Of a stretch of DNA of 64,000 nt, positions 908-64,000 are shown one piece after another (within the stretch, counting starts at the first letter, position 1; each line of letters begins with the position of its first letter). This DNA comes from Shigella phage Sf16. The stretch is taken from the sequence record MF158043; one strand, given 5' to 3'. The notes beneath the pieces were generated by a model. That model searched no databases, was not told the origin of the DNA, and saw only the letters and a list, made by a program, of their open reading frames with translations. A program made the position numbers and the translations under genes.

Positions 908-2257
908 ATGAGTTCGAATATCTTCAGACTTGCTGACAGATTATTCAACCAACCTTTACTAGCTACAGAATCATTAGCCCACTCAGCAGCGACTTATGTT
1001 AATAACCGCTTGTTAGGTGAGGTACAAGCAGCAGTAAACTTCGATAAGCCAAAAGGTGAAGCAAGAAGTCTTTTAAAAGTTAAAGAAGACATTGCTATCA
1101 TCCCTATTATGGGTGGCCTAACACATCGTATGACCTTCATGGATGCAATGTGTACTGGTGGACTAAGTTCTTATGAAGGTTTACGCAGAGGCTTTGACGA
1201 AGCCCTAGCAGATGAGTCTATTAAGACTATCGTGCTGCACGTTGATTCAGGTGGTGGTGAAGCGTCAGGTTGTTTTGAGTTGGCACGTCACATCATGGCT
1301 TCAAGAGGCCAAAAGAAAATTATTGCTTATGTAGATGAGTTTGCTTGCTCTGCTGCATACGCTCTTGCATCTTCCGCTGAAGAAATTATTGCATCACCAG
1401 ATGCAGATGTTGGTTCAATTGGTGTGATTATGGTTCACCAAGAATTAACTAAAGCATTTGAAAAGAATGGCGTAACTATTAACGTTATTAAAGCTGGTGA
1501 ATTTAAAGGTATGGGTTCCCCATTCCAAGCATTATCAGAAGAAAGCAAGAATAGACTTCAAAAGAGAATTGATGACACCTACAAGACTTTTACTAGTTTT
1601 GTTGCAGACTCACGTAATATCTCTGAAGAAGCTGTAAAGAATACTGAGGCGAATGTTTATTCTGCTCAGGAAGCTCTTGAACTTGGTTTAATTAACTCTA
1701 TCATGTCTCAAGATGATTTCTTAAATTACTTACAAGGTTCTGAAGAAGCTCCTGTAAGTTTAAACACAAACAATTCAGGTGAAGAAATGACTGAACAAGA
1801 AAAGCAAGAACTAGAAGCTCTGCGTCTTCAGGTTGCTCAAATGAAAGCTAAGGAACAGGAAGCAGTTCTTACAGATTTAACTGGTAAGATTTCTGCATCT
1901 GCTGAAGCTTTTGGGTTTGATGCAAAAGAAGCTGCAACAACTATTTTAGGTGCTGGTCTTGACAACCCTCTGAGTGTTCTGTTTATGAATGCTATGGAAG
2001 GTGCTAACCAGAAACTTAATGAAACTATCGCGTCCCATGCTTCTGCCATGTCTGAGAAGGATTCTGAAATCACTAAGCTGAAAGAAGCTGCTGGTGCTGT
2101 TCTGGAACACTCAAACGCTATGGAAGAACTTGGCAATGACGGCGAAGCAGAAGTGGATGATGGTAAAGATACCACTCCAGAAGCAAATGTTAATGCTAAC
2201 GCTGACCAACGCAAACTGGCTCTCCAGAATGCTTTGAATACTCTTATCAAGAAATAA
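908..2257 (+). CDS. prohead protease, S49/SppA (ClpP-fold) family, with C-terminal coiled-coil scaffold-like region
   Basis: motifs IPIMGG...VLHVDSGGGEASG...IAYVDEFACSAAYALAS typical of S49 peptidases (lambda gpC-like); Glu/Ala/Lys-rich C-terminus; position before capsid gene. Confidence 0.7.
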   Translation: MSSNIFRLADRLFNQPLLATESLAHSAATYVNNRLLGEVQAAVNFDKPKGEARSLLKVKEDIAIIPIMGGLTHRMTFMDAMCTGGLSSYEGLRRGFDEALADESIKTIVLHVDSGGGEASGCFELARHIMASRGQKKIIAYVDEFACSAAYALASSAEEIIASPDADVGSIGVIMVHQELTKAFEKNGVTINVIKAGEFKGMGSPFQALSEESKNRLQKRIDDTYKTFTSFVADSRNISEEAVKNTEANVYSAQEALELGLINSIMSQDDFLNYLQGSEEAPVSLNTNNSGEEMTEQEKQELEALRLQVAQMKAKEQEAVLTDLTGKISASAEAFGFDAKEAATTILGAGLDNPLSVLFMNAMEGANQKLNETIASHASAMSEKDSEITKLKEAAGAVLEHSNAMEELGNDGEAEVDDGKDTTPEANVNANADQRKLALQNALNTLIKK

Positions 2258-2269
2258 GGAACACAAATA

Positions 2270-2647
2270 ATGGCATATCAAGGTTTTACTAAATTAGGTG
2301 AAAGAGAACCTCTTAACGATATTATCCTTTGGGAAGAAATTACCCCAACTGGTCACTCTCGTAAAGAGTACGCTCCAGTAGCAAGCACAGAATACCGTGT
2401 TGGTGAAGTTCTGAAGGCTGACGGCTCTAAAGTAGCTGCTGGTCAAGAAGCTCAGGCAGATTCTGTATGTATCGTTAACTTCTATGCAGACCTGCAACTG
2501 TCTTATCATGGTCAGTTAAAAGTCGTTGGTATCTACCGTGACGCTGAACTGAAAGACTTGCTGAAGCTAGAGAGTGGCGTTGATGCTGCTGCTGTCAAGT
2601 CTGCTCTTAAGGCGAAAGGTATTGATTTCGTCCCAACTGGCCTGTAA
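2270..2647 (+). CDS. putative head decoration protein
   Basis: 125-aa ORF between protease and major capsid gene, as in lambda D position; assignment by position only. Confidence 0.35.
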   Translation: MAYQGFTKLGEREPLNDIILWEEITPTGHSRKEYAPVASTEYRVGEVLKADGSKVAAGQEAQADSVCIVNFYADLQLSYHGQLKVVGIYRDAELKDLLKLESGVDAAAVKSALKAKGIDFVPTGL

Positions 2648-2678
2648 TTAATAATAAGACATTCTGGAGAATTTTACA

Positions 2679-3782
2679 ATGTTGACTAATTCTGAAAAAA
2701 GCAGATTTTTCCTTGCTGACTTAACTGGTGAAGTCCAGTCTATTCCAAATACTTACGGATATATCTCTGGTCTGGGACTGTTCCGTTCTGCTCCACAAAC
2801 ACAGACTACTTTCCTGATGGACTTGACTGATTGGGATATCAGCTTACTGGATGCGGTAGACCGTACCAGCCGTAAAGCTGAGACTAGCGCTCCTGAGCGT
2901 GTTCGTCAGATTAGCTTCCCGATGATGTACTTCAAGGAAGTTGAAAGCATCACTCCTGATGAGATTCAGGGTGTTCGTCAGCCAGGCACTGCAAATGAAC
3001 TGACTACTGAAGCAGTTGTACGTGCTAAGAAGCTGATGAAGATTCGTACCAAGTTTGACATTACTCGTGAGTTCTTGTTTATGCAAGCTCTGAAGGGTAA
3101 AGTTATCGACGCTAACGGTGTTCTGTACGCAGACCTGTACAAGCAGTTCGATGTAACTAAGAAGACTATCTACTTCGACTTGGACAACCCGAACTCTGAT
3201 ATCGATGCGCACATTGAAGACCTGCGTATGCACATGGAAGATGAAGCTAAGACAGGTACTGTAATCAACGGTGAAGAAATTCACATCGTTGTTGACAGAA
3301 CTTTCTTCAGCAAGCTTATCAAGCATCCTAAGATTCGTGACGCATACCTTGCACAGCAGACTCCGCTGGCTTGGCAACAGATTACTGGTTCTCTGAGAAC
3401 TGGTGGTACTGACGGTGTTCAGGCTCACATGAACCGTTTCTACTACGGTGGTGTTGTATTCGTACAGTACAACGGTAAGTTCAAAGACAAGCGTGGTAAG
3501 ACTCATACTCTGGTTAGCATTGACGGTGTATCTGATACTAATGTTGGTGTAGGTCACGCATTCCCTAACGTAGCAATGTTAGGTGAAGCTAACAACATCT
3601 TCGAAGTTGCTTACGCTCCATGTCCTAAGATGGGTTATGCAAACACTCTGGGTCAGGAACTGTATGTGTTCGAATATGAGAAAGACCGTGACGAAGGTAT
3701 TGACTTCGAAGCCCACTCTTACATGCTGCCATACTGCACACGTCCTCAACTGCTTGTTGACGTTCGTTCAGACGCTGAGTAA
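2679..3782 (+). CDS. major capsid protein (lambda gpE-like)
   Basis: 367-aa ORF following protease and decoration-like gene, strong RBS, size and order match E-type capsid genes. Confidence 0.65.
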   Translation: MLTNSEKSRFFLADLTGEVQSIPNTYGYISGLGLFRSAPQTQTTFLMDLTDWDISLLDAVDRTSRKAETSAPERVRQISFPMMYFKEVESITPDEIQGVRQPGTANELTTEAVVRAKKLMKIRTKFDITREFLFMQALKGKVIDANGVLYADLYKQFDVTKKTIYFDLDNPNSDIDAHIEDLRMHMEDEAKTGTVINGEEIHIVVDRTFFSKLIKHPKIRDAYLAQQTPLAWQQITGSLRTGGTDGVQAHMNRFYYGGVVFVQYNGKFKDKRGKTHTLVSIDGVSDTNVGVGHAFPNVAMLGEANNIFEVAYAPCPKMGYANTLGQELYVFEYEKDRDEGIDFEAHSYMLPYCTRPQLLVDVRSDAE

Positions 3783-10473: not shown

Positions 10474-13234
<2,761 letters not shown>

Positions 13235-13235
<1 letters not shown>

Positions 13236-13651
13236 TGAAAACAGATTTTGCAATCAATCTTGGTGGTGACTACGTAGCTAAATTAGGAAATGATTCTGTA
13301 TACGTTGCTCACGGAGATTTAAAAATTACGGGTAATCAGATTAGAATTATCCCAGAAGACGATAAAGCTACTCAGGTAGCTCAAAGATTACATATTAGGT
13401 GTCTTCTAAGGGCTGGAGAAGTATTCTTTAATACATCTGCTGGATTCCCTTATTTACAGCTTGCTAAGTTCAAGCAGAAGACCTCTATTTTTGATAATTA
13501 TATGAAAGGTTACCTTGTTGAAACGAGAGATGTAACAAACATCTACAACTACTCTTCAACAATGGATAATGCAATGAGAAAAGTGTCAGTCAGATTTAAT
13601 GCAACGACAACTGCTGACGATGTTGAAATTAATACAGAGGTAAACATTTAA
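13235..13651 (+). CDS. putative baseplate wedge small subunit (gpW/gp25-like)
   Basis: 138-aa ORF, gene order. Confidence 0.35.
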
Positions 13652-15120
13652 TGGCTGGATTAACAACTACAGGTTTACAAACAAAAAGATATCAAGAAAT
13701 CTTGGATGATGTTAAAGCAAGTCTGTATAGAGATATCTCACCAAACCTTGATGTTTCTGAAGATAGCGAACTTGGGTTATTCTTAGCTTCTGTTTGCCGA
13801 GGTCTTGCAGACGTTCATGAAATCTTGTCAGAAATCTATGATGGTGGTACTATTGACAAAGCTGAAGGATTCAGTTTAGATGATGTAACAGCTTTGAATG
13901 CTGTATACAGATATGTGGCACAAGCTACAAGAGGTCAAGCTGAGTTCACTGGTAACTCTGGTGCTCCTGTACCAGCAACTACAAGATTAAGAAGCACAGC
14001 AGGTAACATCTTTTACCCTGTGTCAACTTTCACGCTGACTCCATCTTACTGTGTAGAGGCAAACTTAGAAGTTAACTCTTTACGAACAGATGCAAACTAT
14101 GTTATTATCATTGATAACATTGAGTATTCATATCAGCCGACTAGCTCTGATACCATTACAACATTGCTACAGAAACTTGCAGATGCTATTAATGGTGGTA
14201 TTATTGCAAAGGCTGAAGTTACTAATGATGGCTCAGTTCTAAGAATCTATAAAGACACTGGAGATATCATTGCCAGAACTAACCCTATGGTTGTTACTGC
14301 AACGACATTCTTAACATTTACAAAGATTACTTCAATCAGTGACGTTGTAGCAGATGAAACTGGAGCTATCCAGACTCTGGCAGGAACCTTGATTGAGATT
14401 GAAACAACTGTAGATGGTCTTGATAGTGTCTTCAACAGATATGATTTGACAACAGGTCGTGATGAGGAAACTGACACAGAACTGAGACAACGTTACTTAG
14501 AATCTCTGGCTGTTACCGGTGTAGGTACTCTGGATGCTATTGTAGCTGCTGTAAAGAGAGTTCAAGGTGTGTCTGACGCTTCTGGTGTAGAAAATGATAC
14601 TGAGACAACAAACTCTGATGGTCTTCCTCCGAAGTCTTTTAAGATTGTTGTAGTTGGTGGTCAGAATGATAATATTGCACAGGCAATCTGGGACACGAAA
14701 CCTGCTGGTATTCGCCCATATGGTGCAATCTTTGGGACTGCATATGACTTAGGCTCTCTCCCTCACGATGTTTACTTTAGTAGACCAATGCCTAAATACG
14801 TTTTTGTCAAGGTCACTTACTCTCTTTACGATGAAGAAACTCTTAACATCCCTGAACAGGATATTCATGACAGAATTGTTCAAGGTATCAATACCTATGG
14901 TAGAACGTTGAAAGTTGGTAACGATGTAATCCCTAACAGAATTTATGGGCATATCTATGATGTGATTCAAGGTATTGAGATTAATGAGATTAAGGTTGCA
15001 CTTTCAAACAACCAAGCAATTCCACCTGCTGATGAGCAGTACACCACTTCAAGAATTACTATTGATGGTGACCAGTACACTGTTTGGGAAAGCTCACAGT
15101 ATACAATTACCAAGGAGTAA
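13651..15120 (+). CDS. putative baseplate J-like protein
   Basis: 489-aa ORF, gene order. Confidence 0.45.
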
Positions 15121-23649: not shown

Positions 23650-23949
23650 TTAATCTGCCAGCCTTAAGTTAAAATTTACACCAAGTTTTGTACAAGCATT
23701 AAGCATGTACTCTAAAGAAATCTTTTGAGGGTCGTTAATGATATTTGATACACGACTCTGTGAGATTTCACAAACAGTTGCTACTTGAGCCTGAGAAAGT
23801 TTTAGCTTCTCAATCTCTTTAGAGAATCTGAAAGATACAAAGTCTTTCATCTCTTCTATATCCATTGGACAGACATAACTCTCCATTTCAGCCTCTCTAT
23901 CAGCCTCCCAAGAATCTTGAGGTGCATATGGGTCAAAGACTTCATTCAT
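23650..23949 (-). CDS. helix-turn-helix (XRE/Cro-like) DNA-binding protein
   Basis: C-terminal segment LSQAQVATVCEISQSRVSNIIN resembles XRE-type HTH. Confidence 0.45.
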   Translation of the reverse strand: MNEVFDPYAPQDSWEADREAEMESYVCPMDIEEMKDFVSFRFSKEIEKLKLSQAQVATVCEISQSRVSNIINDPQKISLEYMLNACTKLGVNFNLRLAD

Positions 23950-29841: not shown

Positions 29842-30100
29842 TTTTACTCCCTCTCAAATCATTCTGGATAATACCCTACAGCAATTTTCTGCAAAAAGCA
29901 AGTTGACAAACTGCTTGACAAGGTGTTAGTCTTTTCGAAGTGGGTTTTATCTTAATAGACTCCCTTTATAGATTAACTATACAGTTTCTTTAAAAGTCTT
30001 AAAAGATTTTTAATAGCTTTTAAAAAGCTTTAAAGTTATATGTATAACATACATAAAGATAAGAGATTAAAATCTTTATAGATACTTAACAGAGGCAATC
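29842..30100. promoter_or_regulatory. divergent AT-rich control region
   Basis: 259-bp non-coding gap between divergent genes; two TTGACA hexamers, TGCTTGA, AT-rich dyad repeats. Confidence 0.4.
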
Positions 30101-30541
30101 ATGCAGAGGATGTACGTTCACCCAGATATCAATAACCTTGTCCAAGCTTTAGAAAGAGTTGAAGCACTTTACATTGAGGCTCAGAAGGAGTATGCTTATC
30201 AACATCGTCGAATGGTTGATGTTCAGCATGAGATAGAACTATCAAGTGGATACGACGAAGGTTTAAAGTGTTCTGTATTTGAGCACATGAAAGAGATATC
30301 TTCAGAAAGACGTAAAGCGAAAGACACAATCTTTTTGATAGATACCTTAAAAAATAAGTTGCAAAATGGAACGGACTTAGATAGTCTATCCCAACTGCTT
30401 CAGGATGCAGAGAATACGTGGGACAGAAATTACTTCCCACGGTCTGAAAAAGGACTTGACTTCTCTTCACAAGAAAGCTTAAGATTATCACGACTTACTA
30501 TTAACAAAATGAGAGAGATTAAAGATGAAAACTGTAAATGA
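30101..30541 (+). CDS. hypothetical protein
   Basis: 146-aa ORF with AGAGG RBS. Confidence 0.4.
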   Translation: MQRMYVHPDINNLVQALERVEALYIEAQKEYAYQHRRMVDVQHEIELSSGYDEGLKCSVFEHMKEISSERRKAKDTIFLIDTLKNKLQNGTDLDSLSQLLQDAENTWDRNYFPRSEKGLDFSSQESLRLSRLTINKMREIKDENCK

Positions 30542-55623: not shown

Positions 55624-55648
55624 GGGCTGCTTCGGCAGCCTTTTTTAT
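55624..55648 (+). terminator. rho-independent terminator (UUCG tetraloop)
   Basis: GGCUGC-uucg-GCAGCC followed by UUUUUU. Confidence 0.6.
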
Positions 55649-55676
55649 TTGAAAAATGTGCAGGTTAGTGTATAAT
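55649..55676 (+). promoter_or_regulatory. promoter TTGAAA-16-TATAAT
   Basis: near-consensus hexamers immediately after terminator. Confidence 0.5.
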
Positions 55677-59254: not shown

Positions 59255-59455
59255 ATGGCTGATTTCTGCACTAAGTGTTCTGTTGAGATGTTTGGAAAAG
59301 ACACAGGGGACTTAAAAGGCCTCTTTACAAAAGCAGAGTTTGAAGCTGGTTCAGCAATGCCAGTAATCTGTGAAGGTTGTGGTGCTTTATGGGTAGACCA
59401 TGAAGGTAACCGAGTTAAACCATCTGAAGATAACGAACGTTGGGAGCATTACTAA
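59255..59455 (+). CDS. small zinc-ribbon protein
   Basis: CTKC ... CEGCG cysteine pairs. Confidence 0.4.
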   Translation: MADFCTKCSVEMFGKDTGDLKGLFTKAEFEAGSAMPVICEGCGALWVDHEGNRVKPSEDNERWEHY

Positions 59456-59456
59456 T

Positions 59457-60251
59457 ATGGGTATCGTAAAAATTATTAAAGGTGATATCTTTAAAGACTT
59501 TGATGGTAAGAAATTTGATATCATTGGTCACGGTTGTAACTGCATGAACTTGATGGGTGCAGGTATCGCAGCAACAATTGCCAAACGTTACCCAAAAGCT
59601 TATGAAACTGACGCTGAAGTTTATGCTACAGTAGGTGGTGAAAATCATAACCCTAAGCATCTAATGCTTGGTAACATCTCTGTAGCACGTTTTAAGCAGG
59701 GTCGAATTGCTAACCTTTACACTCAGGTTATCACTGGCAAAGATGCACGATACAACGCCTTAGAAGCAGCTTTACAGCGTCTTAACAACTACTGTAAAGT
59801 TAATCAACTTAAGAAAGTTGGGCTTCCGATGATTGGTGCAGGGATTGGTGGTCTTGATAGCATGGCTGTGCTGTCCATTATCAACCAGACTATGAAGGAT
59901 GTTGACGTTTATATGTATGTCTATGAAGATAAGATGTACAGTCAGTTGACTAGTCCTGTTACTGGTTGGGAGAACTTCAGTGAGCCTCAATACTTTGATG
60001 GTGTTGCTGTGGTAGGCAAGGATAAAGTTACCCTCAAGGTGAAGCGTAATGGCAAGGTACACACCAGTTACCCTCCGGTTGAGAAGTACAATCGAAGTAA
60101 CGCTCAAGTTACCCACCCGTTACAAGGCCACCACCACAGAGCGGTAACGTTTGGCGATGATGCAAGTGTATATATCAATGCGACTACAGAAGAGTTTGCA
60201 GAAGATTATATCACACATGAAAACGTAAACTATGTTGAAGCACGTAACTAA
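59457..60251 (+). CDS. macro-domain protein, TARG1/DarG-like ADP-ribosyl hydrolase (putative)
   Basis: IKGDIF...DIIGHGCNCMNLMGAGIAATIAKRYP and LPMIGAGIGGLD...VYMYVY match the TARG1/DarG macro pattern; extra C-terminal ~110 aa. Confidence 0.65.
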   Translation: MGIVKIIKGDIFKDFDGKKFDIIGHGCNCMNLMGAGIAATIAKRYPKAYETDAEVYATVGGENHNPKHLMLGNISVARFKQGRIANLYTQVITGKDARYNALEAALQRLNNYCKVNQLKKVGLPMIGAGIGGLDSMAVLSIINQTMKDVDVYMYVYEDKMYSQLTSPVTGWENFSEPQYFDGVAVVGKDKVTLKVKRNGKVHTSYPPVEKYNRSNAQVTHPLQGHHHRAVTFGDDASVYINATTEEFAEDYITHENVNYVEARN

Positions 60252-60277
60252 TAAGTCACCTAGATAGACATAGACAA

Positions 60278-60325
60278 GCCCTCCAAAGTTTGAGTTTTAA
60301 ATCTCAGGTAAGGAGGGCTTTTTCA
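60278..60325 (+). terminator. putative terminator
   Basis: GCCCUCC ... GGAGGGC stem with long loop, then UUUUU. Confidence 0.4.
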
Positions 60326-60515
60326 TTTCAAATCTGTGCAGGTATAGTTGAGTAGAACTCTGGACAGATTTCTTTAACTGAACTCCAAAGGGAAATTTCA
60401 TTTTCAAAACGTACAGGTCTAGACTCCAAAGAGCTTTTTCATTTTCAATCTGTGCAGATGCAGTTGGACTCCAAAGGGAAAATTCATTTTCAAATTGTGC
60501 AGGTAGGTAGCTGTA
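60281..60515. repeat. four degenerate ~45-bp direct repeats
   Basis: unit ACTCCAAAG(G/A)G...TTTCATTTTCAA(A/T)(T/C)TGTGCAG(G/A)T seen four times. Confidence 0.55.
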
Positions 60516-60522
60516 GGAAACC

Positions 60523-60556
60523 AGCCCCACCACCCCCTCTTACTCCCCTTCCTCCC
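60523..60556. other. C-rich polypyrimidine tract
   Basis: cccaccaccccctcttactccccttcctccc. Confidence 0.4.
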
Positions 60557-60676
60557 AAAAGTCAAGCTAAAAATTTGTAGAGAACTGAAAAATAATTCTT
60601 GACGAGATTTCTGTTTTAGTGTATTCGCATACGTGCGTTCTATTCACGAAACATAAAATATTTTTAAAAAATTTTG

Positions 60677-60703
60677 TTGACTTCATAAATCCAGTCTTAT
60701 AGT
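60677..60703 (+). promoter_or_regulatory. promoter TTGACT-15-TATAGT with AT-rich upstream element
   Basis: hexamers read directly; first promoter of the small-ORF array. Confidence 0.5.
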
Positions 60704-60755
60704 ATTTGCATCAACGGGAAACATCCCAACAATCCTAAACTGGAGAATCTAAAAA

Positions 60756-60962
60756 ATGTTATATCAACGTGAGTTAATGATTGTTGACAACAACAAAACA
60801 AATAAACGTCGTTTCTATATGCTAATTTGTGATGTTTGGCAACGCATTTCAGAAAAGGATTTTGATAAATATGTTGATACGTCAATCAGGTCAGATTGTT
60901 ACTTGACAACTCATACAAGACAGTTTACAAGGCATACAGCAATTTATTATTACAACGTTTAA
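60756..60962 (+). CDS. hypothetical small protein
   Basis: 68-aa ORF preceded by conserved leader CCTAAACTGGAGAATCTAAAA. Confidence 0.35.
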   Translation: MLYQRELMIVDNNKTNKRRFYMLICDVWQRISEKDFDKYVDTSIRSDCYLTTHTRQFTRHTAIYYYNV

Positions 60963-60973
60963 AAGGCTTGACA

Positions 60974-61135
60974 ATGATTAAAGAAAACGATGTAATACAA
61001 TACAAAGATTTGGACGGATACCCAAAAATTGGTAAAGTTTTCTATCTCTATAAGTCTGCTATGGGTAATGATTGTATAGCCCTTATAAATGGCGACAAAA
61101 TAACCATGAAAGATTTTATAAAAATTATTGCATAA
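60974..61135 (+). CDS. hypothetical small protein
   Basis: internal ATG 60974 of track ORF 60896-61135. Confidence 0.3.
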   Translation: MIKENDVIQYKDLDGYPKIGKVFYLYKSAMGNDCIALINGDKITMKDFIKIIA

Positions 61136-61218
61136 AGTGCTTTACATGGGGTTTAAAAGCTAGTATCTTAAGCCCAGATAAAGAGCTTTACAAACAATCC
61201 TAAACTGGAGAATCTAAA
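61136..61218 (+). promoter_or_regulatory. repeated promoter/stem-loop/leader element (PeSL-like), copy 1
   Basis: TTTACA-17-TATCTT, hairpin CTTTACATGGGG...CCCCAGATAAAG, conserved leader and GGAG RBS. Confidence 0.5.
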
Positions 61219-61599
61219 ATGAAATATCGTGCGCCTAAATTTATCAACAAAGAAAACTTTCGTAGTATCTTAGAGGAAACTATGAAAGAAAACTTCAAAG
61301 AAAAAATAATTGTTGTTCACGCTTACAATTTTAAGTATGATGTTAATGGTAACCGTATTAACCACTACAAAGCTACTATGCTTGACGGCACATTATCCGG
61401 TGAAAAAGCTATCATAAATGCTATTGCAGGACGTGGTAAAACTGTGATACGATGCGAAAAAAGACGCTATCAAGGCGGAAAATATGGATATGAAGATGCA
61501 ATGTACCATCTTGATAAAATGGGGTATGATGTAGAGAAAGCTGGAGTATCTCAAACGATTGGTAGTGACGGCTACGTTACAGTTTTCAAAATTAACTAA
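61219..61599 (+). CDS. hypothetical small protein
   Basis: 126-aa ORF after element copy 1. Confidence 0.4.
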   Translation: MKYRAPKFINKENFRSILEETMKENFKEKIIVVHAYNFKYDVNGNRINHYKATMLDGTLSGEKAIINAIAGRGKTVIRCEKRRYQGGKYGYEDAMYHLDKMGYDVEKAGVSQTIGSDGYVTVFKIN

Positions 61600-61691
61600 A
61601 TAAAGTCCTTTACATGGGGTTTATAGTTAGATAAGATAAGCCCCAGATAAAGAGCTTTACCAAACAATAACCTAAACTGGAGAATCAAAAA
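61600..61691 (+). promoter_or_regulatory. PeSL-like element, copy 2
   Basis: TTTACA-17-TAAGAT, same hairpin arms and leader. Confidence 0.5.
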
Positions 61692-61949
61692 ATGGCTACT
61701 ATCAAAAACATCATTGTATCTGCAAAATCTCGTGATGACGCTCGCGCAACTGCTAAAAAACTAAATGGCAAAGTTGTTGACAACGGAAAAGAAGCTGCTG
61801 TAAGATGGGGCGTGAAATGTGATAAGGAAATTACTTTAAAACGTAGTTCCTATGACCTTTTCAAAGGTGTAAAAGCAATCGGTAGAACTAATGTCTACAC
61901 AAAGAAAGGTTACAAAATGCACTTATCATTAACTAGCAATTTAATCTGA
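61692..61949 (+). CDS. hypothetical small protein
   Basis: 85-aa ORF. Confidence 0.4.
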   Translation: MATIKNIIVSAKSRDDARATAKKLNGKVVDNGKEAAVRWGVKCDKEITLKRSSYDLFKGVKAIGRTNVYTKKGYKMHLSLTSNLI

Positions 61950-62040
61950 TAAAGTGCTTTACATGGGGTTTATAAGTTGCTAGTATAAGCCCCAGATAAA
62001 GAGCTTTACTAACCAATAGTCCTAAACTGGAGAATCTAAA
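61950..62040 (+). promoter_or_regulatory. PeSL-like element, copy 3
   Basis: TTTACA-17-TAGTAT, same hairpin arms and leader. Confidence 0.5.
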
Positions 62041-62553
62041 ATGAATTTTGTTGAAAGCACCTTTGAAGTTCAAAAAGAAAAATTCACTATCATCTATGAA
62101 GCTGTTAATATTTGTGAAGCATCCCATTGTGTGGAGAATTGGAAGTTTACCGATGAGCACAAAGGCGGGGTTACAATCAAACTTAAAAATCCAGAGCGTA
62201 ACGGGTACAAATATGCAATTCCACAGCATTACAGCCTTGCACAATTGATGAGTGATTATGCTAAGCAAGGCCGCGAAAATCCATCTATAGAGGCTTACAA
62301 GAGCTTACAAGATGAATTACAAAGAGATTTAGAAGCTAACAGCTATGTGCTATTTGCAAAGGTAGAAGATAAAGAAGGTAATACGGTATTAAATAGCTTT
62401 TCACTTGCTTATGGTTTCGATTGGTGTTATCTTGACGGGGAAGATTTAGATTCACGCTTAGAAGAGGAAGTGTCGAACTCCGATGGAGAATCTGAAGTAA
62501 TGGAACGTTTAGAAGCCTTGAAAGATTCTGTTATGAATATCTTTAATATCTAA
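62041..62553 (+). CDS. hypothetical protein
   Basis: 170-aa ORF, acidic C-terminus. Confidence 0.4.
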   Translation: MNFVESTFEVQKEKFTIIYEAVNICEASHCVENWKFTDEHKGGVTIKLKNPERNGYKYAIPQHYSLAQLMSDYAKQGRENPSIEAYKSLQDELQRDLEANSYVLFAKVEDKEGNTVLNSFSLAYGFDWCYLDGEDLDSRLEEEVSNSDGESEVMERLEALKDSVMNIFNI

Positions 62554-62636
62554 AGTGCTTTACATGGGGTTATCAAGTTGATAAGATAGCCCCAGATAAA
62601 GAGCTTTACAAACAATCCTAAACTGGAGAATCTAAA
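62554..62636 (+). promoter_or_regulatory. PeSL-like element, copy 4
   Basis: TTTACA-17-TAAGAT, same hairpin arms and leader. Confidence 0.5.
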
Positions 62637-62933
62637 ATGTTTATTGCCGCAAACGTTAGAACTAAATTAAGCCAGCTATTAAGTAATATCCAATTCATTG
62701 AATCCATGCGCCGTACATCTGAAGCCGTAGAGTGGTATCATGGAAAGATTAACAAAAAGGAAGTAATAATTTGTGTATGGAACTTTTGTAAAGAATACAA
62801 AAAACCATTGCTTCAGGTTGATATCTATGATAACACTAATAAGTCATCGATTAAGACTACTAGAGATATGGTTGATTCATATGAAATTAGTCACACTGGT
62901 AAACTATTTCACAAAGGCGTGAACAAATGTTAA
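62637..62933 (+). CDS. hypothetical small protein
   Basis: 98-aa ORF. Confidence 0.4.
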   Translation: MFIAANVRTKLSQLLSNIQFIESMRRTSEAVEWYHGKINKKEVIICVWNFCKEYKKPLLQVDIYDNTNKSSIKTTRDMVDSYEISHTGKLFHKGVNKC

Positions 62934-63332: not shown

Positions 63333-63605
63333 ATGTATACTACTAATGACGGTCGCACTTTGAACGTAACTTTAAAACACTATGTAGACGGTGTATTAAA
63401 CTTTGAAGAGTTAAGAGCAGAACAGCACCTATTAGATTGGCAAGTAGCAGGTTTACAAAAAACCGCCACAGGATATGGAAAGAAAATTCCTACATCTTGG
63501 AAAGTTCGATACCTTGGAAAGTTACGCAGAATTTATCAAGATGTTTATAGTAATAGCGGTGTAAGTTATATTATTGTTAGCGGTAAAAAATTGTATTTAG
63601 TCTAA
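63333..63605 (+). CDS. hypothetical small protein
   Basis: 90-aa ORF; its 3-prime 185 bp is duplicated at 63816-64000. Confidence 0.4.
   Translation: MYTTNDGRTLNVTLKHYVDGVLNFEELRAEQHLLDWQVAGLQKTATGYGKKIPTSWKVRYLGKLRRIYQDVYSNSGVSYIIVSGKKLYLV
63421..63605 (+). repeat. 185-bp exact direct repeat, copy A
   Basis: identical base-for-base to 63816-64000. Confidence 0.8.
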
Positions 63606-63695
63606 TAAATTGCTTTACATGGGGTTTAAAAGTTAGTATCTTAAGCCCCAGATAAAGAGATTTACCAACAATCAACCTAAACTGGAGACTAGAAA
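63606..63695 (+). promoter_or_regulatory. PeSL-like element, copy 5
   Basis: TTTACA-17-TATCTT, same hairpin arms, variant leader. Confidence 0.5.
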
Positions 63696-63830
63696 ATGAC
63701 TACAATTAATCACAAAGAAGTTGCAATTTTGAAAGCACGTTTGACCATTAACCGCATCAACATTGTAACATCAGCAGCGCCAGACGAAACACTGCATAAT
63801 ATCATCGGTAAAATTAACAGCACCTATTAG
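63696..63830 (+). CDS. short 44-aa ORF running into the duplicated segment
   Basis: hand translation; terminates at TAG 5 codons into the repeat copy, in a different frame from the original gene. Confidence 0.25.
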   Translation: MTTINHKEVAILKARLTINRINIVTSAAPDETLHNIIGKINSTY

Positions 63831-64000
63831 ATTGGCAAGTAGCAGGTTTACAAAAAACCGCCACAGGATATGGAAAGAAAATTCCTACATCTTGGAAAGT
63901 TCGATACCTTGGAAAGTTACGCAGAATTTATCAAGATGTTTATAGTAATAGCGGTGTAAGTTATATTATTGTTAGCGGTAAAAAATTGTATTTAGTCTAA
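63816..64000 (+). repeat. 185-bp exact direct repeat, copy B (start-less 3-prime gene fragment, truncated by window end)
   Basis: identical to 63421-63605; in the gene frame a stop lies immediately upstream and no start codon is present. Confidence 0.8.

Follow-up and report, generated by a model that had tools for sequence, protein, structure and literature searches.

Several kinds of repeated non-coding elements are known from phages and plasmids, and here we compare with them a non-coding block of Shigella phage Sf16 in which four directly repeated boxes lie between a long operon and a run of small early genes. The block was analysed within a 64,000-nucleotide stretch of sequence record MF158043 (hereafter the window).

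In bacteriophage T4, the MotA box of middle promoters is centred near −30 and takes the place of the −35 element. A fifth copy of the Sf16 box, found in a promoter at 55.6 kb, resembles this arrangement, being centred near −30 with a perfect −10 and a poor −35. The two motifs differ in sequence (TGCTT in T4, TCATTT-N7-GTGCA here), and the four boxes of the array, unlike middle promoters, have no −10 element and hence are not promoters. T4-type phages also carry promoter–stem-loop cassettes in their early regions. Similar cassettes occur in the window as well, and they resemble the block as repeated non-coding modules among small, shuffled early open reading frames (ORFs), with a 10-mer, AAAGAGCTTT, common to the flank of the third box. 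Each cassette, however, comprises a complete promoter, a stem-loop and one gene, and the cassettes are scattered, whereas the boxes lack a −10 element, are clustered and have a fixed count.

Iteron origins (phage lambda ori and the R6K, pSC101, F and P1 replicons) have in common with the block direct, asymmetric sites of ~20 bp in one orientation at a single locus, as well as an AT-rich tract and promoters nearby. Here, in contrast, the spacing is 37–75 bp and unphased, no initiator gene is adjacent, and the fifth copy lies inside an unrelated promoter. Type III arrays (ToxI, CptI, TenpI) and the pseudo-ToxI of phiTE are similar in their tandem 35–45-nt units and in the course from a minus-strand promoter-like element to a terminator; phage mimics of such antitoxin arrays are known (PMC3475682). 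The Sf16 locus differs from them in having no toxin gene, units that are partly alike, no pseudoknot or fold signal and no similar array found in the host genomes searched. The injection stop of T5 is likewise a conserved non-coding repeat block that forms the inner border of a terminal segment of ~8% of the genome and is better kept than the neighbouring genes, the segment itself containing small early genes with strong host-type promoters. The T5 region, 1.2–1.7 kb long and containing paired DnaA boxes as well as palindromes and inverted repeats, lies inside a 10-kb terminal repeat, whereas the block described here measures 0.5 kb, has four direct boxes and short inverted repeats (10–20 nt), and lies outside a 0.6-kb terminal repeat.

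Felix O1 has no RNA polymerase of its own and no known homologue of MotA or AsiA; the temporal control of its transcription is not understood, and its genome paper lists other direct repeats without mentioning the block (PMC3185647). The literature that we searched contains no description of the element or of binding to it, and no transcript map or origin for Felix-O1-like phages.

Four boxes form a single array

The gap between the two flanking genes contains four repeats, all on one strand, together with an intrinsic terminator, a C-rich tract and promoters. The gap and the boxes, with position weight matrix (PWM) scores, are as follows:

60252-60755: non-coding gap of ~500 bp, from the macro-domain gene to the first small early ORF
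60323..60340, plus strand: box 1, TCATTTCAAATCTGTGCA, PWM 25.0 bits, found in all relatives
60398..60415, plus strand: box 2, TCATTTTCAAAACGTACA, PWM 22.6 bits
60439..60456, plus strand: box 3, TCATTTTCAATCTGTGCA, PWM 27.4 bits
60484..60501, plus strand: box 4, TCATTTTCAAATTGTGCA, PWM 29.5 bits

A repeat search recovered four 40-nt direct copies starting at 60304, 60379, 60420 and 60465 (spacing 75/41/45), with repeat units 60–88% alike, and Tandem Repeats Finder reported copies 2–4 as a 45-nt tandem array. The string that they share, TTCATTTTCAANNTGTGCAGGT, has five matches with up to three mismatches in the 64 kb, compared with 0.04 expected. The conserved part is an 18-nt two-part core, T(C/T)ATTT-N7-GT(G/A)CA, located on the plus strand in all copies. 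The four direct repeats of ~45 bp described in the first-pass annotation are therefore present in that number, but they are not uniform 45-bp units. The 5′ flank of every box is a run of five T or of four to five A; copy 1 merges with the U-tract of the terminator, so that the T-run forms the left half of box 1. Box 2 carries one window-specific G-to-A change, at which Mordin and other relatives read GTGCA.

The window was scanned with a weight matrix built from the boxes of eight phages, using 50 shuffles as the background. The array boxes scored 22.6–29.5 bits, a site at 55645-55662 scored 19.6 bits and everything else scored 12.5 bits or less, so that the repeat unit has a single further strong match in the 64 kb. 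The first 23 kb of Shigella phage Sf14, which lie beyond the window, gave zero matches of at least 10 bits with a broader matrix of 40 boxes. In the IMG/VR database, a two-box pattern matched only 26 Felix-like contigs of 52–90 kb, once each. A looser version of this pattern was discarded, as it mostly retrieved an unrelated protein-coding-type repeat (TCATTTGCTAATGGTGC, translating as SFANGAF).

Conservation across related phages

The 601 bases around the block matched 255 phage records in total and showed 99.7% identity to Sf14 (Mooglevirus, Ounavirinae, Felix-O1-like). For the alignment we used the gap from eight phages of three genera, and the distant relatives ST-3 and P778 were found via the protein of the neighbouring macro-domain gene, whose aligned part is only ~40% identical. 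A regular expression detected 40 boxes in 10 phages, comprising three related genera, Kolesnikvirus and an unclassified Yersinia phage, with exactly four boxes in each at the same locus. The repeat is thus present, in four copies, in every one of the ten phages compared, and nearly all Felix-like loci that we fetched show the four-box array.

The half-sites and their 7-nt spacing are invariant, while the spacer letters, the linker sequence and the linker length (37–75 bp) vary. Box spacing is 75/41/45 in the window, 73/39/45 in most relatives, 37/37/39 in ST-3 and 67/47/47 in P778. The ST-3 locus runs through a terminator, four boxes, a C-rich tract, a GTCAAG box and a strong promoter, and P778 has the four boxes plus the GTCAAG box.

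Compared with Felix O1, in which the equivalent of the gap lies between ORF13 and ORF15, the non-coding block is 72% identical and the repeat array 75%. The macro-domain gene reaches 67% (55% at third codon positions) and the first small ORF 65% (44% at third codon positions). Conservation above that of the flanking genes marks the block as being under selection, and the pattern of constraint, with fixed half-sites and spacing and free linkers, fits a protein site rather than a fold or a reading frame.

The element is therefore real, strongly conserved and of a known general kind, a protein-docking repeat array. A site on DNA that is read by a protein, rather than a fold, a frame or a promoter, is suggested by fixed, asymmetric half-sites separated by about one turn of the helix, by their single orientation and fixed count, and by the free linkers and the single locus in each genome. 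Because exactly four copies are kept in related phages, the block is very likely a conserved cis-acting DNA control region to which a protein docks, and we take the boxes as probable sites for a single sequence-specific DNA-binding protein.

Terminator, C-rich tract and promoters around the array

The array is positioned between the terminator of a long operon upstream and the start of a ~7-kb terminal block of early genes downstream. The features around it are as follows:

59400..60251, plus strand: macro-domain ("phosphatase") gene, an ORF that closes the upstream operon
60277..60324, plus strand: intrinsic terminator with arms at 60277-60284 (AGCCCTCC) and 60312-60319 (GGAGGGCT), then TTTTTC
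60521..60556, plus strand: C-rich, G-poor tract of 36 nt (24 C, 7 T, 4 A, 1 G)
60537..60565, minus strand: candidate leftward promoter P_L, TTGACT (60565 to 60560), 17-bp spacer, TAAGAG (60542 to 60537)
60599..60627, plus strand: candidate rightward promoter P1, TTGACG-17-TATTCG, with an A-rich tract before it
60677..60705, plus strand: early promoter P_E, sigma-70-type TTGACT-17-TAGTAT, with an AT-rich upstream tract at 60648-60676
60727..60962, plus strand: shared translational leader (CAATCCTAAACTGGAGAATCTAAAA, leader family D2) and first small early ORF

Homologues of the macro-domain gene are annotated as macro-domain phosphatases in Sf14, Mordin and Felix O1, and a homologue also precedes the block in Kolesnikvirus ST-3 and Yersinia phage P778. 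On the other side, the first small early ORF encodes 68 amino acids and matches PHROG 5293; the run of small ORFs extends from 60756 onward.

The hairpin that had been called terminator-like appears in the minimum-free-energy fold. Its right arm, GGTAAGGAGGGCTTTTT, is invariant in eight phages, and the left arm varies between clades yet stays complementary. A 34-nt polypyrimidine run had also been reported; the tract exists, but it spans 36 nt and is C-rich rather than purely pyrimidine. On the minus strand it reads as G-runs fitting the quadruplex pattern G3+N1-7. The tract is kept in the Mooglevirus, Suspvirus and Felix O1 relatives and is shorter in ST-3, and in Alf5 and pEC-M719 it is swapped for an unrelated G-rich sequence with the opposite strand bias.

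Past the tract, a stretch reading AAAAGTCAAG ... AAAAATAATTCTTGA is invariant, including in Alf5 and pEC-M719, and on its two strands it amounts to two back-to-back −35 hexamers. The leftward one belongs to P_L; eight phages share without change both its GTCAAG box and the "TA" of its −10. Its equivalents read TTGACT-17-TAGCCT in Alf5 and pEC-M719 and TTGACC-18-TATACT in ST-3; in the window the −10 is weak, and a simple promoter scan did not call P_L. The rightward hexamer, back-to-back with that of P_L, is the −35 of P1, which reads TTGAC(G/T), and AAAAATAATTCTTGA is invariant in eight phages. Activity of P1 is doubtful, given a −10 that ends in G in every phage. Judged from sequence only, P_L and P1 are candidate promoters, both weak as sigma-70 type, and P_L would transcribe the four boxes up to the hairpin.

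The strong promoter placed at 60677 in the first-pass annotation was recovered by the promoter scan, and its TTGAC and TA.TAT are conserved in relatives. The duplex at 60648-60690 ranks fourth to fifth among the least stable 40–60-bp windows in the 64 kb.

A fifth box in an upstream promoter

The only strong match outside the array is the following site:

55645-55662, plus strand: fifth box, TTATTTGAAAAATGTGCA, PWM 19.6 bits

A recurrence of the repeat core had been noted at 55655-55670; the shared letters, TGTGCAGGT, lie at 55657-55665, between a terminator hairpin and TATAAT. The box spans about −38 to −21, in place of the −35 region, in a promoter whose −10 is perfect (TATAAT, 55671-55676) and whose −35 is poor and variable, located just past the rIIB terminator and ahead of a lysin-like gene. 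Alf5, Silverhawkium and pEC-M719 keep TYATTT, GTGCA and TGTATAAT at this site, and the intervening letters vary. At least 18 related loci have a box 4.2–4.6 kb upstream of the array; P778 lacks it, and none was seen in Kolesnikvirus loci. The recurrence of the motif in a fixed promoter position is thus found only in the Felix O1/Mooglevirus/Suspvirus clade. In this clade the operon running from the lysin-like gene to the macro-domain gene is bracketed by boxes, because one lies in its promoter and four lie past its terminator.

In Silverhawkium, pEC-M719 and one IMG/VR contig we observed a further box-like match 73 nt downstream of the promoter box. Its position in both annotated phages corresponds to the opening codons of the lysin-like gene (MKKFILGLCL). 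The distance equals the spacing between box 1 and box 2; the match does not occur in this window and may be due to chance.

A possible transcriptional boundary or replication origin

The four functions offered in the first-pass annotation fared differently: a binding array for a regulator and an iteron origin both stand, because the box is asymmetric, lies on one strand, occurs in four copies in 10 phages, has free linkers and forms a single array, whereas tandem weak promoters and a structured non-coding RNA (ncRNA) fail. Only copy 1 has a −35/−10 pair (TTTTCA-17-TATAGT), with a −10 that is lost in relatives, and copies 2–4 have none.

Since the promoter box ties the docking factor to transcription, we rank a transcriptional boundary or operator array first, as a tentative choice. 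The surroundings of the array are consistent with it: an invariant terminator arm upstream, and invariant back-to-back −35 hexamers and a strong promoter downstream. The docking protein might be encoded by the phage or by the host, and it might read the DNA as a monomer with two heads or as an asymmetric complex. Once bound, it would set the activity of the fifth-box promoter, and at the four-box array it would form a boundary, whether by blocking or insulating transcription or by looping to the box in the promoter. The early block would start from the back-to-back elements of P_L and P1 and from P_E, and early and middle transcription would thereby be separated or coordinated. Both the binding of a protein to the boxes and its effect on transcription are inferred here.

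Several observations weigh against a transcriptional boundary. We identified no cognate binding protein: the ten neighbouring ORFs have no Pfam domain, and their PHROGs are all of unknown function. The one candidate is the sole annotated DNA-binding regulator, an HTH_3 protein (23650-23949, minus strand, 99 amino acids, Cro/C1-type, Pfam E = 2.8e-8), which is located in the polymerase-side operon. Its 258 records belong to the same clade as the fifth box, and it was not detected in Kolesnikvirus or P778, both of which carry the array. A simple operator would be expected closer to P_E than the boxes are, at 175–380 bp upstream. Their spacing (37–47 bp between neighbours, 67–75 bp for the first gap) is out of phase with the DNA helix, so that tight cooperative binding to a single face is less likely. 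Taken alone, the fifth box, which is clade-specific, is marginal (19.6 bits, compared with a maximum of 18.9 bits in the 50 shuffles). Finally, the present data do not separate a transcriptional role from a replicative one.

The main rival, which we regard as possible at a lower probability, is a replication origin. The four boxes would serve as iterons for a phage initiator or as a loading site, with nearby transcription from P_L, P1 or P_E and the AT-rich segment at 60648-60690 opening the duplex; a P_L transcript, starting in a G-run on the C-rich template, would favour a stable R-loop that primes the family-A DNA polymerase. There is one array per genome, and its four directly oriented asymmetric sites are arranged as in plasmid iterons and lie on the same strand in 10 of 10 phages. 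The adjoining AT-rich tract is within the five least stable 40–60-bp windows of the 64 kb, promoters lie on both sides, and the G-run/C-rich tract is located directly downstream of the P_L core. The annotated Sf14 replisome is T7-like (family-A polymerase, primase-helicase) with no dedicated initiator annotated. Against an origin, no initiator gene occurs among the ten neighbouring ORFs and none is annotated in Sf14. The irregular spacing of 37–75 bp shows no helix phasing, the sequence that replaces the C-rich tract in Alf5 and pEC-M719 has the opposite strand bias, and a fifth box embedded in a promoter is unexpected for an origin element. Moreover, the least stable duplex of the window lies elsewhere, at 29.96–30.11 kb, which is at least an equal candidate.

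The region 29960-30110 separates two divergent operons, that of the DNA polymerase on the minus strand and that of the primase-helicase on the plus strand. This intergenic region contains A/T tracts phased at 10–11 bp (CTTTAAAAG, CTTAAAAG, CTTTTAAAAAG), and two TTGACA hexamers lie at 29903-29920. It is plausible as an alternative origin or as a divergent early promoter region.

Repeat RNA, entry checkpoint and other alternatives

A leftward repeat RNA is an unlikely explanation. It would be a P_L-driven transcript of ~250 nt from ~60530 to a two-way terminator at 60277-60319, whose four modules bind or titrate an RNA-binding protein, as a sponge or as a decoy for a type III host toxin. On the minus strand, the order is indeed promoter, repeats and hairpin, with an invariant TTGACT −35 and a "TA" 17 bp away, and Alf5 and pEC-M719 (TAGCCT) as well as ST-3 (TATACT) have a better −10. 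In the window, however, the −10 reads TAAGAG (3 of 6 matches, with the final T missing), and P778 has no usable −10. Units 2–4 stand head-to-tail at 41–45 nt, which is within the repeat sizes of type III antitoxins. Against this, antitoxin repeats tend to be almost identical (PMC12283969), unlike the linkers here, which diverge freely, and no toxin gene follows the array.

The fold signal, covariation and Rfam results were all negative, and they also leave the structured ncRNA proposed earlier unsupported. Compared with shuffles, the plus strand had a fold z-score of 0.0 and the minus strand one of −1.7. A compensatory change was seen at only 1 of the 34 predicted pairs, in one sequence, with a covariation term of +1.19; Rfam gave no match at E ≤ 5 except a chance snoRNA. 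Searches of 5,426 E. coli genomes, PLSDB plasmids and 185,579 species genomes revealed no similar repeat: the E. coli set gave no match, the plasmids gave chance matches only, and the species genomes gave three matches in unrelated lineages, one of which on inspection was a 30-nt periodic tandem repeat. A host-derived repeat or antitoxin mimic was rejected as well, as an apparent likeness to ToxI (GTGCAG.TAG, AAATTCA) failed on the differing motif spacing.

Somewhat less probable still is the idea that the block is a cis-acting checkpoint of the terminal 7-kb "first-in" segment. A bound host or early phage protein would hold the genome there; it might stage DNA entry, by analogy with the T5 injection stop, or it might loop the array to the promoter box of the lysin operon and so time the switch from early to middle expression. 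If true, this would be a timing mechanism new for a phage family in which temporal control is unexplained (PMC3185647).

We consider it quite improbable that the block is a Rho loading site, at which the C-rich tract and a G-poor repeat region catch terminator read-through before the early genes while the boxes have no function. The tract, with 24 C and 1 G in 36 nt, does lie directly downstream of the terminator and repeats, and the P778 sequence near the boxes is C-rich and G-poor as judged by eye, without a count. Nevertheless, such a site leaves the invariant GTGCA and TCATTT half-sites and the fixed count of four unexplained; Alf5 and pEC-M719 have a G-rich replacement of the tract, and in the repeat region of the window G (41) exceeds C (33).

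A boundary for staged genome entry, at which a host or membrane-associated protein would pause the incoming DNA at the inner edge of the terminal early segment, appears very improbable. It is suggested by analogy with T5, whose first-step-transfer segment makes up 7.9% of the genome and is bounded by conserved non-coding repeats (bioRxiv 10.1101/866236). In vB_EcoM-Ro111lw (Ro111lw), the boxes lie 7.0–7.2 kb (8.1–8.3% of the genome) from the right end, and only small ORFs reading toward that end are found in between. Felix-O1-like phages are not known to inject in two steps or with this end first, and the terminal repeat measures 0.6 kb here compared with 10 kb. No good DnaA box was seen by eye against the consensus, with no scan run; the best candidate matched 8 of 9 positions, in Kolesnikvirus only.

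We give as little credence to a relic, in which the boxes would be decayed duplicates of the terminator or of the promoter–stem-loop cassettes near the small early ORFs. In this window the sequence to the left of boxes 2–4 (ACTCCAAAG) is similar to the hairpin's left arm, the 10-mer in the box 3 flank recurs in the early cassettes, and the early region is visibly mosaic. Decay is at odds with a block more conserved than its flanking genes and with exactly four boxes across genera whose neighbouring protein is only ~40% identical.

The boxes were compared, by eye only, with the consensus sequences of known host factor sites. No convincing match was seen for DnaA, IHF, Fis, CRP or Ter, or for RfaH ops, sigma-E or UP-element sequences. 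The MarA/SoxS/Rob box, GCAC plus an A-tract, likewise consists of two parts in a similar arrangement but is one base off register.

Least credible of all is a real minus-strand gene across the block (Sf14 gp039, Mordin gp126, PHROG 15689), a small repeat protein or mini-ORFs starting from in-box ATGs. A "hypothetical protein" is annotated across 60297-60533 in many GenBank/RefSeq records, PHROG 15689 matches with E = 2e-54, and one frame is open through boxes 4 to 2 in six phages; against these, variable sites fall on the three codon positions as 7, 12 and 13 of 41 with no third-position excess, each pair of phages shows 0–4 synonymous compared with 1–14 non-synonymous codon differences, a 2-nt indel breaks the frame in this window and in Mordin, the stop-to-stop length ranges from 64 to 117 codons with differing ends, the boxes of ST-3 (37, 37, 39) and P778 (67, 47, 47) are not spaced in multiples of three, Silverhawkium has lost two of the box ATGs, and there is no Shine-Dalgarno sequence. 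As this is the sole long ORF of the gap and it fails the coding tests, the earlier statement that the gap holds no convincing gene is borne out. The ORF at 60297-60533 is very probably an annotation artefact of in-phase repeats and should be dropped.

Early cassettes and genome ends

The window differs from Sf14 downstream of 61.2 kb, where it contains three extra small ORFs. These lie at 61219-62553, encode 126, 85 and 170 amino acids and are not found in Sf14 at that place, while the flanks are 99.7% identical. Extra small ORFs beside flanks of such identity mark the window as a cassette-level mosaic relative of Sf14, distinct from Sf14 itself.

Cassettes of ~90 nt precede small ORFs at 61133-61221, 61599-61691, 61948-62040, 62551-62639 and 63604-63696. 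Each consists of TTTACA-17-TA..(A/T)T, a GGGG...CCCC stem-loop around the spacer and the −10, then AGATAAAGAGCTTTAC and the shared leader CAATCCTAAACTGGAGAATCTAAAATG. They probably drive cassette shuffling. An exact 185-nt duplication (63421-63605 and 63816-64000, 395 nt apart) reaches the window edge; it covers the 3′ part of a 90-amino-acid ORF and the sequence downstream, and the Sf14 annotation flags a possible gene duplication in the early region.

Outside the window, Sf14 (NC_042075) encodes at 12570-13985 an annotated RNA-binding protein (DUF2828), located directly upstream of a cluster of 26 tRNA genes. The DUF2828 family is related to Ro60, so that a partner small RNA might be encoded nearby.

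The block was also considered as a genome end or terminal repeat, and this was rejected: the terminal repeat of Ro111lw is a different, CTTGTTAAG-rich region ~7 kb downstream, and its repeat type is absent from the window. In Felix-like phages the terminal repeats measure ~610 bp (PMC4837284, PMC6454146), and the Ro111lw record shows a 613-bp terminal repeat at both ends (termini from PMC6454146). A non-coding terminal region of 1.1–1.6 kb, outside the window, spans 1572-3170 in NC_042075 and 1-1214 and 85874-86950 in Ro111lw. It is dense in CTTGTTA(A/G) and CTGTTAAG repeats and includes the 613-bp direct terminal repeat. It is likely the packaging and concatemer-junction region.

Significance for Felix-O1-like phages

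Felix O1 and related phages belong to the classic typing phages, and they are in wide use for biocontrol and therapy. Both the order of their gene expression and the start of their replication are unexplained. The block is a sharply defined element that occurs once per genome, is under selection and lies exactly at the boundary between early and middle genes, and its motif lends itself to mutation, to use as bait and to titration from a plasmid. The analysis also brings an annotation correction to the family, as the "hypothetical protein" placed across the block in many records is very probably no gene.

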